Below, piece after piece: positions 26,343 to 61,851 of a stretch of 64,000 nucleotides of DNA. Within the stretch, counting starts at the first letter, position 1. Each line of letters starts with the position of its first letter. Below the pieces are notes generated by a model. The model saw only the letters and a list, made by a program, of their open reading frames with translations. It made no database searches and was not told the origin of the DNA. The DNA comes from Promethearchaeati archaeon SRVP18_Atabeyarchaeia-1 (lineage in GTDB: Archaea; Asgardarchaeota; Atabeyarchaeia; Atabeyarchaeales; Atabeyarchaeaceae), in contig CP147779.1 of assembly GCA_037308085.1 (NCBI GenBank), positions 2,144,001-2,208,000 of the forward strand, written 5' to 3'. The translations under genes were made by a program, and so were the position numbers.

Positions 26343-27143
26343 TTATATTCCTTCAACGTAATGCTCATCAAGATGCTTCTCGCAGACCGGGCAGTAGTCA
26401 TGAGTGTGCAACCATTCCAGCATGTGTTCCCTGTGTGCTGGACTTCCGCAGTGGGGGCAAAACACCACCTCATCCGCCTTGGAGATAGCAAGATTGCATA
26501 CGATGCACTTCCCAGCAGAACCGGAGGCTGCAGATATACTTGTCAGCGATCCCACTTCCACATATTGCTCCAAGTCTCCAACTGAAGTTCCTCGGCCACG
26601 AGCGAATATCGCCACGAAAACAATCATAATGAATATCATAAAAAAGCCAGGAACAATCAGGAGCGGTGCCAGAAACGAAGAGCCCCCCATAAATGACATC
26701 GGGCCGACGAATAAGAATATGACGATGAACCCGAAGAAGATGCAAAAGAATACTGGTATGAGGAGAGCTGCGCCCGAGGCTCCCCTTCCCGAGGGATGTA
26801 TTTCGCCAGTCTCATCGCAAGCTAGCCTCTTAACGTCAACTGATTCAGGTAGATTGCTGCCTGCTTTCCACACTCTCGCTCTGCCCCAGATGGTGACATT
26901 GTTACCGGGCATGATTCCAATGTTTCGGGTCTGCATATCTATAAGGCAGGTTACGGGTTTCCCTCCGATTCTCACAGTTATGGCCCCGACCTGCGATATC
27001 CAGCTAGATACCGATCCCGCGGTGGAGCCGCCTGCATAGCCCCTTACGTGTGTTTCAGGGTTCAGGCGAACTTCAGTTACCTCACCGCTAAACTTCACTA
27101 GCTCAGGCCGAGTAGCAGTATTGCTTCTTGAAGCTGGCGGCAT
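26343..27143 (-). CDS. OB-fold-like domain, two TM, variant RING protein
   Basis: Beta-rich N-terminus (FSGEVTEV..GNNVTIWG); two TM helices; CIVC..CPHC..HREH..W..CPVC. Confidence 0.78.
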   Translation of the reverse strand: MPPASRSNTATRPELVKFSGEVTEVRLNPETHVRGYAGGSTAGSVSSWISQVGAITVRIGGKPVTCLIDMQTRNIGIMPGNNVTIWGRARVWKAGSNLPESVDVKRLACDETGEIHPSGRGASGAALLIPVFFCIFFGFIVIFLFVGPMSFMGGSSFLAPLLIVPGFFMIFIMIVFVAIFARGRGTSVGDLEQYVEVGSLTSISAASGSAGKCIVCNLAISKADEVVFCPHCGSPAHREHMLEWLHTHDYCPVCEKHLDEHYVEGI

Positions 27144-29163: not shown

Positions 29164-29231
29164 GAGAAACCACCGTGATACCCTCTTGAATGAATAGCGA
29201 CTTACCCCGAGGGTAATATATTACTTCCTCT

Positions 29232-29360
29232 GGTTCTGTTATCTCTGCGGTTGATAACCGTTTGGGTTAACTTCTCCGCTCTGGCTCACCGCCTTATTTA
29301 GGGGTCGGATCACGGCTACATGTGCGGGGCGATCCAGCCTGAACCGCAGGCTTTCATCTT
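29232..29360 (-). ncRNA. Putative reRNA/omegaRNA scaffold overlapping the tnpB 3' end
   Basis: Hairpin AGCCTG-CGGTT-CAGGCT (29352-29336), whose GGTTC is complementary to the terminal GAACC; homologous to the MITE interior. 5' boundary approximate. Confidence 0.6.
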
Positions 29361-30465
29361 GGGTTTTGAGCAGGTTTAAGCAGGCGTTTACATGTCGATC
29401 TGTTCCGCACCATCCTAGGGTTTTCGCTTTCGGGTCTTGCATGATGCACCCACACACCGCGCAAATCCTAGAAGTGTTCCACGGACTGACTTTGACGGTT
29501 TGGACTCCCGCCCAGAGAGCCTTGTACTCGATGAAGCCCTGCAGCTTGCGGAAGCTCCACGAGTTCAACCTCCGCTTCAGTTTCCTGGAGTGTTTGCTTA
29601 TCTTCTGAATCCTCCCGTTGAAGCTGTTGACGCCCAAGACCTTCCTGTTAATCGCCCTGCGGATATGTCTAAGATCCTCGAGGATAATGCCTTGCTCCCT
29701 GGCTTTTGCTTGTCTAACTATCGCTGAACTCACCTGGTGCAGGACTGTGTTGACCTTGTTGTTCTGGTTGGTGAACCATCTTCTCTGAATCTTCTTGGCT
29801 ACCCGCTTGTCCTTAGCGTACTTGGCTTGAACCTTTCGTACACGCTCGAAGTATCCGTGCCTCGCCTCTGAAACCCTCTACAGATCGTGGCTTTCAATAG
29901 TTAGCTGTCCATCTTCTTTTGCGCTTGCTCCGTCCAACGAGCGTTCATTCGTGTCGTACGCGATGTAACCCTTTGGTTCGGCGACCTCAGCGGTCTTCGA
30001 GAAAACCAGCGAAACCGTGCAGGCAGCCAAGGACACTGAACCCAACTTGAGCGCGGCATCCGATAGGAACTGCGCAGCCCTCTTATGCAGGGGAACGTAG
30101 AAGTACTCTCTGGGCTTGATCGGTATTCTCAGTTTGCCGTCAACGAATCTGTAGGCCTGGTTTCCCAGTTTGGCCGTGAGTTTCTTGGCCCTCGGCGCTC
30201 TAACAATCCGGCGCCTTCTTTTCGCTTTCCGGTAGTTCTTCAGGATGGCGGTGGCAGCCTCGATGGCTGAGAGGCTTTACCAGGTGTGGAGACCGAAGCC
30301 GCTTAGCTGGTCGTACGTCTCGCTCTGCAGGCTGAGCCTGGAAGTTGCATTCCTCTCCAGGCCGACGCGGATGCAGTGGTTAACCATGGTTCTGAAGGTT
30401 TCAAGGAGGCTGAGAACACCACTTGTAGGCTCGTATGGTACCTGCACCGCTTTAACTGCCTGCAT
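29239..30465 (-). pseudogene. tnpB: TnpB/Cas12f-like RNA-guided nuclease (408 codons, two in-frame stops)
   Basis: Single frame from ATG 30465, with stops TAA 30277-30279 and TAG 29878-29880. RuvC-I YIAYDTNERS, RuvC-II IILEDL, WSFRKLQGFIEYKA, NTSRICAVCG, DRHVNACLNL. Confidence 0.92.
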
Positions 30466-30717
30466 AAAACTAAATAAGCCAAAAATCCCATTTAAACTCA
30501 CCAACCGCAGAGGTAACAGATCCCTTGCTCTGAAAAGAACGCTTTCTGAGACAGAGAAAGCTGGACATTCCGCACATATAGGCACGGACGCAATACGGAC
30601 TGCGATAGCGAAGGAAGAGTTGACGGATCCTTCTTGTTCACCTCGTTTCCTAGCCCCGCATTTGGATTGATTAATACGCACCTGAGGCGAGCCTCAAGCC
30701 AAGTTGGACCCCAGTAC

Positions 30718-32430: not shown

Positions 32431-33108
32431 CTACTGCTGCAGCTCTTGTTGGGTTGTTTTCTGTTTGCATGCTGGGCAGTATCCCTTGTCGCGTACCCAT
32501 TGCAGGAAATGCGTTCTATGTGCGAGGCGCCCGCAGTGAGGGCAGCGTATCGCTACGTCACCGTCCCTGAAGTTCGCGTCGCAGACCATGCAATGCTCCG
32601 CCTGCTCATCCAAGTCCAAGAGGCTCTCACCCTTTGACCCACGTCTTAGGTTCGCGCCGCAGGCTGTGCAGAAGTTGGCGTTCGGATGCATGTTTATTGC
32701 TCCACAGGCGTTGCACATTTTCCAGCTCACCTTGAGAGGCTTCGAGTAGGGCACCTCTGTCGTGGATTCAGCATTCTCTGCTGGACTCACGCTCTGTGAG
32801 GCTTCTTCTTGCGGAGTCTCAGCCTGGTCTTGGCGGTCGCGCATCCACCTGCTCCTTGCTTCATCCTCGCTCAAGTCGACTTCTCCAGGTTCGATTTGGG
32901 GTTCATTCCACTCTTCTTGATCAATTGTTGTGGTTTCTCCAAGGACTTTTCCCCTTATGCCATGCTTCAGCTTCACGCCAGCCCCACAGTGAGGGCAGTA
33001 GATCACTTCTTCGGGGGTTGGCAGTACTATTTTCCCCCCACACTTCGGGCAATGCTGGTAGAACTCCTCGGTAGATGGCGGTACATGTCCGTGACCTAGG
33101 TACGGCAT
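32431..33108 (-). CDS. Zinc ribbon, acidic linker, zinc ribbon, variant RING protein
   Basis: CPKC..CPHC, CNAC..CTAC, CMVC..CPHC..HRTH..W..CPAC. Confidence 0.8.
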   Translation of the reverse strand: MPYLGHGHVPPSTEEFYQHCPKCGGKIVLPTPEEVIYCPHCGAGVKLKHGIRGKVLGETTTIDQEEWNEPQIEPGEVDLSEDEARSRWMRDRQDQAETPQEEASQSVSPAENAESTTEVPYSKPLKVSWKMCNACGAINMHPNANFCTACGANLRRGSKGESLLDLDEQAEHCMVCDANFRDGDVAIRCPHCGRLAHRTHFLQWVRDKGYCPACKQKTTQQELQQ

Positions 33109-54748: not shown

Positions 54749-55010
54749 GGTTCTGTCAAGTCTTCGGTAGGTGACTCGACTGGCTCGCATCGACTTTCAG
54801 GATTGCCTTTCCTTCTGTTCCGGGGGTTCCTGTACCATCGCCTCACCTGCGAGCCCCTTCAGGCCGAACCACAGCCCTGCGTCTGCTTCTACACGGGTTC
54901 TCCTTTCCCCTCCGCCTTCGGCTATAAAGCCACATACCGCGGAGCGGGGAGACTCTTAGGCTCACTATTCCGTTCCCAATATATAAATCAACCACAGACT
55001 TTACAGAGCC
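54749..55010 (-). mobile_element. MITE, 262 bp, carrying a TATA box and omegaRNA-like structure (copy 1, no TSD)
   Basis: Ends GGTTCTGTCAAGTCTTCGGT and ACCACAGACTTTACAGAGCC are 16/20 inverted; ~93% identical to 61592-61851 in opposite orientation. Confidence 0.88.
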
Positions 55011-61591: not shown

Positions 61592-61851
61592 GGCTCTGTG
61601 AAGCCAGTGGTTGATTTATATTGGGAACGGAATATTGATTCCAAGAATCTCCCCGCTCCGCGGTATGTGGCTTTATAGCCGAAGGCGGAGGGGAAAGGAG
61701 AACACGTGTAGAAGCAGGCGCAGGGCTGTGGTTCGGCCTGAAGGGACTCGCAGGTGAGGCGATGGTACAGGAACCCCCGGAACAGAAGGAAAGGCAATCC
61801 TGAAAGTCGATGCGAGCCAGCCAAGCCATCAACCGAAGACTTGGCAGAACC
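61592..61851 (+). mobile_element. MITE, 260 bp, carrying a TATA box and omegaRNA-like structure (copy 2, perfect 8-bp TSD)
   Basis: Ends GGCTCTGTGAAG... and ...CTTGGCAGAACC; CTTAACTC duplicated at 61584-61591 and 61852-61859. Confidence 0.92.
61648..61851 (+). ncRNA. Putative stand-alone TnpB-type guide RNA scaffold
   Basis: TTTATA box at 61615-61620. Stems CTCCGC/GCGGAG, GGCT/AGCC, GGGCTG/CGGCCT, CTCGCA/TGCGAG and CAGGA/TCCTG. GGTTC (61730-61734) is complementary to the terminal GAACC (61847-61851). Confidence 0.6.

Follow-up and report, generated by a model that had tools for sequence, protein, structure and literature searches.

A TnpB-omegaRNA module in a probable non-autonomous IS6-like DDE element of an Asgard archaeon

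Introduction

The stretch of DNA analysed here (the window; 64,000 bp from Promethearchaeati archaeon SRVP18_Atabeyarchaeia-1) contains a tnpB gene enclosed by terminal inverted repeats (TIRs) and flanked by a short direct repeat. The locus raises the question of which enzyme moves such an element, and of what an RNA-guided nuclease would do inside it. In the accepted view, TnpB brings back a transposon that a Y1 or serine enzyme has excised without leaving a scar, a role that is not obviously applicable to DDE elements, and reviews describe TnpB as rarely linked to such elements.

The window covers positions 2,144,001-2,208,000 of its own genome, a single 2.81-Mb contig (G000), which was compared with those of two relatives, Promethearchaeati archaeon LC30 (same genus; G001) and Candidatus Atabeyarchaeum deiterrae (same family; G002). 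A sequence-only reading of the window had assigned the gene to an IS6-like element mobilised in trans by a DDE transposase and had guessed at an Asgard-like host; the guess was borne out, the host being an Atabeyarchaeia-type Asgard archaeon. The probable explanation, in our judgement, is a non-autonomous IS6-like DDE element whose cargo is tnpB plus an omegaRNA, with the nuclease cutting empty alleles for homing or retention.

The element and its copies

The element occupies 1,292 bp (29232-30523), with a 22-bp TIR at each end and an 8-bp target-site duplication outside (Table 1). Both features had been proposed from the sequence and were recovered: the TIRs are complementary at 20 of 22 positions, a match equalled in none of 100 shuffles, and the flanking 8-mers, CTTCCTCT and CTTGCTCT, are identical at 7 of 8 positions. 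Read in the tnpB orientation, the 8-mer at the tnpB-3' end is AGAGGAAG, which would supply the first 8 nt of the predicted guide. The sole long frame in the element is tnpB, with its ATG at 30463-65 and its terminal TAA at 29239-41, inside the TIR as had been described. The frame is full-length, as had been stated, but it is interrupted by an in-frame TAA (30277-30279) and TAG (29878-29880) where sister copies encode Tyr and Ser, respectively; the window copy is a pseudogene. Recoding of both stops was considered and ruled out, given the sense codons of the sister copies. The TTTAAA box reported about 25 bp before the ATG was found at exactly that distance and is kept in 10 of the 11 copies of the same family shown (the remaining one reads CTTAAA), which makes it a candidate TATA box of the archaeal kind, from which a leaderless mRNA of tnpB would be made. 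The two nonsense codons, a degenerate flanking motif (see below) and 79-86% identity to its sisters mark the window copy as old and dead.

Table 1. Features of the tnpB element in the window (window coordinates).
Feature	Position	Strand	Details
Target-site duplication copy, tnpB-3' (guide-RNA) end	29224..29231	.	CTTCCTCT
TIR, tnpB-3' end	29232..29253	.	begins GGTTCTGTT; encloses the stop codon of tnpB; supplies the 3' arm of the final predicted omegaRNA hairpin
omegaRNA-like scaffold (predicted)	29232..29359	-	128 nt; overlaps the last ~37 tnpB codons; ends exactly at the element tip
tnpB pseudogene, family F1	29239..30465	-	408 codons; RuvC residues D-E-H
TTTAAA box (candidate TATA box)	30491..30496	-	25 nt upstream of the tnpB ATG; sequence conservation only
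TIR, tnpB-5' end	30502..30523	.	22 nt
Target-site duplication copy, tnpB-5' end	30524..30531	.	CTTGCTCT
TAM-like triplet position	30532..30534	-	TTC in the window copy; TTA in 6/11 F1 copies

A combination of BLAST and TIR scanning identified approximately 24 elements with the same ends in G000. Eleven copies of ~1.29 kb form family F1, to which the window element belongs, and five of these encode intact proteins of 407-409 aa. Family F2 comprises four ~1.26-kb copies, three of them intact, whose protein is ~40% identical to that of F1. A further nine miniature elements (257-381 bp) have lost tnpB and kept the omegaRNA scaffold. The ends read GGTTCTGTT... in every sub-family. Fifteen further BLAST pieces in G000 start or stop at the same boundaries as the window element, and most copies carry flanking repeats matching at 7/8 or 8/8 positions whose sequences are unrelated from copy to copy; the element structure is far beyond chance. 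Duplications at the same boundaries are what the sequence-only reading had led one to expect of other copies. Furthermore, both relatives contain the same tnpB element arrangement with perfect duplications.

Insertion could be observed directly at two loci. The F1 copy at 655 kb is absent from the orthologous intergenic site of both G001 and G002, which carry one copy of (G/A)TAGCTTT followed by TAA(G/A)TAG. The insertion at 54 kb is absent from G001, which reads ..CCTTTA AAGTGTTA.. once. In the tnpB orientation both empty sites consist of TTA and then a single 8-mer. These sites are direct proof of insertion with an 8-bp duplication. No empty site was found for the window copy itself, whose flanks are not syntenic in the relatives, and exact-protein matches of neighbouring genes yielded no polymorphic empty sites, as contigs end within the element or the protein has no record.

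Internally deleted derivatives of tnpB elements, retaining both TIRs and the omegaRNA end, were seen at genome positions 2135115-2135847, 1254037-1255002 and 763237-763617, and look like intermediates toward miniature elements.

A DDE transposase encoded on separate elements

Only two DDE_Tnp_IS240 genes were found in G000, and both lie within larger elements bearing the family TIRs and 8-bp duplications. The first of these carriers (549276-555829; L017 501-7054) spans 6,554 bp, duplicates TGGAGAAC at 8/8 positions and encodes an intact protein of 383 aa that combines a SWIM domain, a zinc ribbon and a DDE domain. The second (614149-618567) spans 4,419 bp with a 7/8 duplication; its transposase is degraded, and both of its TIRs equal the F1 consensus. 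The transposase scored 65.4 bits against Pfam PF13610 (DDE_Tnp_IS240; cut-off 27) and 120.7 bits against the NCBIfam IS6 equivalog, slightly under the cut-off of 125. The same pairing of transposase, TIRs and 8-bp duplications recurs in two relatives and in one Nitrososphaerota chromosome. The G002 carrier (L054 6671-12829) is 6.2 kb long with TGGATTTC duplicated 8/8 and the carrier on the Nitrososphaerota chromosome is 4.6 kb long with CGACAGCG duplicated 8/8, each with different cargo. Twelve more Nitrososphaerota elements with the transposase measure 2.2-5 kb. Overall, the transposase-bearing elements are 2.2-6.5 kb in length with one to four further open reading frames (ORFs), and their transposases are 370-400 aa long. 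Of the genomes sampled, 5 of 400 from Asgard archaea and 30 of 301 from Nitrososphaerota contained the transposase.

The tnpB elements thus share their TIRs and the length of their duplications with the carriers of the only DDE_Tnp_IS240 genes in G000, and a DDE transposase working in trans, as the sequence-only reading had suggested, is their best-supported mobiliser. The two genes keep apart: no IS6-type transposase gene occurs within 1.5 kb of tnpB at any of 80 TnpB loci, and no tnpB within ~8 kb of the transposase at any of 20 transposase loci.

Cargo is varied. The carrier at 549276-555829 encodes a 995-aa Eco57I/MmeI-type N6 methyltransferase fusion along with ORFs of 219 and 156 aa lacking Pfam matches, possibly a mobile restriction-modification or defence function. 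Carriers in other genomes (L054 in G002, L175 8537-13162 in G042, L184-L199) hold a ParB-like 447-aa ORF, an 804-aa ORF, or sets of 120-300-aa ORFs, and this SWIM-IS6 transposon seemingly acts as a general cargo carrier. In L196 (2344-10218), as well as L186, L189, L192 and L193, an element lies exactly 8 bp from the TIR tip of another; in L196 two different elements share the 8-mer TGTTTTAG in three copies, in the order duplication-E1-duplication-E2-duplication. Such abutment suggests targeting of sites beside a resident end.

A structured RNA at the end of the element

The last ~130 nt of the elements, TIR included, contain a conserved structure. An alignment of 23 sequences from F2, miniature elements, Bathyarchaeia and Nitrososphaerota was used for covariation analysis and to build a covariance model (R1). 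The consensus comprises 22 pairs, 17 of which show compensatory changes; paired cells amounted to 97%, versus 25-43% when the partners were slid, a level reached in none of 500 shuffles. In the last helix the inward portion of the TIR pairs with an upstream segment, and the helix co-varies with TIR subtype. Model R1 matched 25 sites in G000, and all 24 at E <=5e-5 end exactly at a TIR tip. The window scaffold, one of these hits, aligned with model positions 1-133 at 53.4 bits (E = 1.1e-8 in a genome-wide search, 1.1e-10 against 28 kb). Family F1 retains the R1 fold, although its alignment was fitted to the model, so that the pair count leans toward the model. The covariation supports a structured omegaRNA that runs over the 3' end of tnpB and terminates at the boundary of the element; we infer that the guide begins just beyond the scaffold. 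A search of Rfam with the element returned no family at E up to 1, and R1 found no omegaRNA in the transposase-bearing elements, the tips of which scored only 9-18 bits.

Over their first ~132 nt, the miniature elements share 72-76% identity with the 3' end of F2, and they would be, in effect, TIR-bounded omegaRNA genes. Two miniature elements of ~260 bp lie in the window itself (54749-55010 and 61592-61851), with IS6-like TIRs, scaffolds scoring 130-134 bits with R1 and no tnpB; in the latter the CTTAACTC duplication is perfect, and TTA stands on its motif side.

The TnpB protein and its clade

The window TnpB is 75% identical to an intact sister copy, its two stops aside. That sister scored 46.9 bits against PF07282 (cut-off 26.3) and 60.6 bits against TIGR01766 (cut-off 32), and 78 bits against NF040570, below the cut-off of 100. 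An AlphaFold model of F1 TnpB (pLDDT 87, pTM 0.78) is confident for residues 1-371 and disordered for residues 372-408, the very residues whose codons overlap the scaffold and TIR. The top Foldseek matches of the model were Cas12f, ISDra2 TnpB and Fanzor2 (E down to 4e-14, TM 0.56-0.67). Among the catalytic residues, D171 is invariant and E263 is present in 51 of 52 sequences, while at position 358 F1 has His (DRHVN) and F2 and F3 have Asp (DRDEN). The zinc finger has four cysteines in F2 and F3 and is degenerate in F1, the window copy included. The change from D to H is common across the clade, and a conserved D-to-H clade of TnpB is regarded as probably active by Altae-Tran et al. (2023; PMC10691335). 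A QDE insertion was entertained as a relocated acidic residue compensating for the lost RuvC-III Asp and was dropped, being absent from many His variants.

The 29 TnpBs whose TIR and duplication were confirmed all group in a single clade (SH-aLRT 95), apart from the Y1- and serine-linked TnpBs of G000. The TnpB query retrieved 58 cluster representatives at E <=1e-30 and 316 at E <=1e-10 out of 1.84 billion. Copies with confirmed TIRs and duplications come from Bathyarchaeia, Nitrososphaerota (Nitrosopumilus and Nitrosotalea) and Asgard genomes. The ~45 tnpB-like genes of G000 as a whole belong to at least six deep families, including an IS605 type (Y1-adjacent), an IS607 type (serine-adjacent) and several multi-copy solo families.

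A one-sided motif and the role of the nuclease

With copies oriented by tnpB or omegaRNA, a YTTR motif stands directly 5' of the tnpB-proximal duplication copy, with zero spacing. TTR was present in 18 of 24 G000 elements at this position compared with 3 of 24 at the mirrored one (p = 1.5e-23), and the motif recurs in 4/4 elements of the relatives and 11/21 from other phyla. At the final position of the triplet, 8 of 11 F1 copies have A and 12 of 13 F2 and miniature copies have G. Elements of G001 that combine F1-type TIRs with an F2-type TnpB carry TTG, and therefore the motif follows TnpB type. We infer that YTTR functions as a target-adjacent motif (TAM).

These observations can be brought together as follows. 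The element would be a non-autonomous member of an IS6-like DDE transposon group, with a complete OMEGA module (tnpB plus omegaRNA) as cargo. The SWIM, zinc-ribbon and DDE_Tnp_IS240 transposase, encoded only on the separate 2-6.5 kb elements, would recognise the shared GG..CTGTT inverted ends and insert the element by an 8-bp staggered cut, a mode of movement that is largely shown. The scaffold, for which covariation speaks, would be written into the last ~130 nt, comprising the codons of the disordered TnpB tail and the TIR. Since it ends at the element tip, transcription reading out of the element would append the 8-bp duplication and the adjoining flank as guide. Since the other duplication copy is preceded by YTTR, an empty allele would read motif, 8-mer and flank, a full target for the ribonucleoprotein, whereas an occupied site would match for no more than 8 nt. 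Cleavage of empty alleles by TnpB would then favour copying of the element into those alleles, resulting in homing or retention. Such a layout mirrors that of IS605 and IS607, adapted to a target-duplicating transposon, and the motif would probably match an intrinsic TTG-flank bias of the transposase through co-evolution.

Several points weigh against this explanation. Classical IS6 elements move via replicative cointegrates and do not excise, and restorative homing would therefore have nothing to restore. Family F1, with His in place of the RuvC-III Asp and a degenerate finger, may cut differently or not at all. The TnpB tree is the product of a quick search, not a finished tree, and the motif count includes two manually placed element boundaries. 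Lastly, in Nitrososphaerota elements that bear the transposase and neither tnpB nor omegaRNA, TTG adjoins one of the duplication copies at 5 of 19 free sides (background 2.6%, p = 1e-4), and two of the four elements in the first transposase-bearing set also have the motif (TTA in G000-A, TTG in the G002 element); part of the motif signal is therefore independent of TnpB.

This last point is the mainstay of the alternative that survives best, although we consider it unlikely: the one-sided YTTR would be set wholly by a transposase that prefers TTG flanks and distinguishes the element ends, with the TnpB motif having evolved to match, as in IS605 and IS607, and with no TnpB-driven selection. The TTA of G000-A and the TTG of the G002 element agree with it, and so do the targeting habits of the transposase, seen in the triple duplication of L196 and in five further sides that abut the TIR tip of another element at exactly 8 bp. 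The transposase probably does have target habits of its own, and the TnpB motif probably co-evolved with them. However, the frequency in transposase-only elements is much lower (~26% of sides versus 75-92% of omega-bearing elements) and their TTG has no consistent orientation relative to the transposase gene, the choice between A and G tracks the TnpB and omegaRNA type and not the TIR type, and the TIRs are nearly symmetric. The stronger and strictly oriented signal of the omega-bearing copies points to the nuclease module or to an asymmetry of the ends.

A second alternative, which we regard as distinctly improbable, gives TnpB a part in choosing the integration site. With or without omegaRNA it would bind the TAM and open the adjacent DNA, where the DDE transposase inserts, and new copies would be born with a usable motif, duplication and guide. 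RNA-guided or Cas12k-assisted transposition is a known principle, a Cas12k fold matched the TnpB model, the motif always abuts the duplication on the tnpB-5' side without spacing, and TTG is enriched even for tnpB-less elements in genomes that have TnpB. Yet nothing points to contact between TnpB and a transposase whose gene is never adjacent, known Cas12k systems insert tens of bases from their protospacer-adjacent motif and not at it, and a motif of 3-4 nt would be weak targeting.

The remaining alternative, an ordinary IS200/IS605 (IS1341-type) or IS607 element moved by a Y1 or serine TnpA, its TIRs and repeats being incidental or derived from a miniature element invaded by tnpB, could appeal to the 3 Y1 TnpA, 3 serine recombinase and ~45 tnpB-like genes of G000 and to one homologous locus (L121) beside a serine recombinase, but is already contradicted by the evidence: TIRs and 8-bp duplications occur at the same boundaries in dozens of copies from three phyla, empty sites hold a single 8-mer, the tnpB frame and omegaRNA run into the TIR (the gene is therefore not nested in an unrelated shell), Y1 TnpA accompanies none of the 80 homologous loci within 1.5 kb, the recombinase of L121 (the 1/80 beside an IS607-like unit) is encoded on the opposite strand and followed there by an ORF of its own, and the Y1- and serine-linked TnpBs of G000 fall outside the clade.

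Other features of the window

On the minus strand at 26343-27143 and 32431-33108 are two ORFs with similar C-terminal zinc-finger motifs (CPHCG...H....W......CP.C) that are Prok-RING-like, one of which has a weak Prok-RING_1 Pfam match in a Logan contig.

Comparison with known systems

That TnpB occurs in DDE elements with inverted ends, with solo copies moved in trans, is already published. Altae-Tran et al. (2023; PMC10691335) describe six DDE-associated TnpB branches (DDE-1 to DDE-6) with inverted ends, in which solo TnpBs share ends with transposase-bearing elements and were inferred to be moved in trans by the DDE transposase. The present elements resemble these branches, as described there, in having tnpB inside inverted-repeat elements with its 3' end near the transposon end, and in having solo tnpB copies that share ends with transposase-bearing elements. 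In some members of the published branches the transposase lies beside tnpB, unlike here (0/80 TnpB loci, 0/20 transposase loci), and methods based on gene neighbourhood would miss the link. Furthermore, the DDE partners of TnpB given in a 2026 review are ISL2, IS630 and IS1031, the partners published in the sources consulted, whereas the partner here is IS6-like. It is possible that this clade is one of the named branches DDE-1 to DDE-5. An IS6-like partner, the layout of motif, duplication and guide, and miniature elements carrying omegaRNA only were not found in the main text of PMC10691335 or in the other literature consulted.

The ends of IS6 elements have a GG tip and an internal cTGTt motif and generate 8-bp direct repeats (Varani et al. 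2021; PMC7986276). The present elements share the GG tip, an internal CTGTT, 8-bp direct repeats, a DDE_Tnp_IS240-type transposase and the existence of miniature derivatives. Classical IS6/IS26 elements are 0.7-0.9 kb long with one ORF of 213-254 aa, and the same account mentions no TnpB and one passenger gene in the whole family (PMC7986276). By contrast, the transposase here has 370-400 aa with SWIM and zinc-ribbon domains, resides in cargo elements of 2-6.5 kb and falls under the NCBI IS6 equivalog cut-off, and its non-autonomous relatives carry tnpB and omegaRNA.

The likeness to IS200/IS605 and IS607 elements (ISDra2, IS608) lies in the predicted architecture: an omegaRNA that would overlap the tnpB 3' end and stop at the element boundary, a guide that would be read from the flank, and a candidate recognition motif outside the opposite end, such that only the empty site would be a full target. 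Miniature derivatives retain the ends, as do PATEs. The present elements differ in lacking a counterpart of the Y1 or serine enzyme, in their true 22-bp TIRs and in an 8-bp duplication that would form the first 8 guide bases, and their excision may be absent altogether.

A parallel is offered by eukaryotes, where Fanzor was reportedly placed in transposons with TIRs and target-site duplications by Bao and Jurka in 2013. As with Fanzor1 and Fanzor2* in such transposons, a TnpB-family nuclease has been captured by TIR elements, the TIR enters the guide-RNA scaffold and many copies are non-autonomous. TIRs together with target duplications form part of the Fanzor RNA scaffold (Yoon et al. 2023; PMC10711439). 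Here, unlike in Fanzor, the 8-mer is arbitrary and must therefore serve as guide and not as scaffold, the hosts are archaeal and the partner is IS6-like.

Within this widespread clade (Asgard, Bathyarchaeia and Nitrososphaerota), tnpB and the transposase gene are never neighbours, and only the ends shared by their elements reveal the link. Such a layout raises the questions of whether TnpB drives or retains a target-duplicating transposon, whether its motif co-evolves with transposase bias, and whether miniature elements spread as guide-RNA genes. In addition, the clade is a source of compact archaeal TnpBs for which a scaffold is defined and YTTR is a candidate motif, and it forms a natural counterpart to the eukaryotic TIR transposons that captured Fanzor. 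A bolder proposal, which we hold only tentatively and think on balance doubtful, is that an archaeal TnpB-omegaRNA on a target-duplicating DDE transposon uses the duplicated 8-mer as guide start and acts either as a gene drive converting empty chromosome copies or as a helper steering the transposase to motif-adjacent sites. If this were true, Fanzor capture would have a prokaryotic equivalent in these elements, which might also mark a step on the way to RNA-guided transposition.

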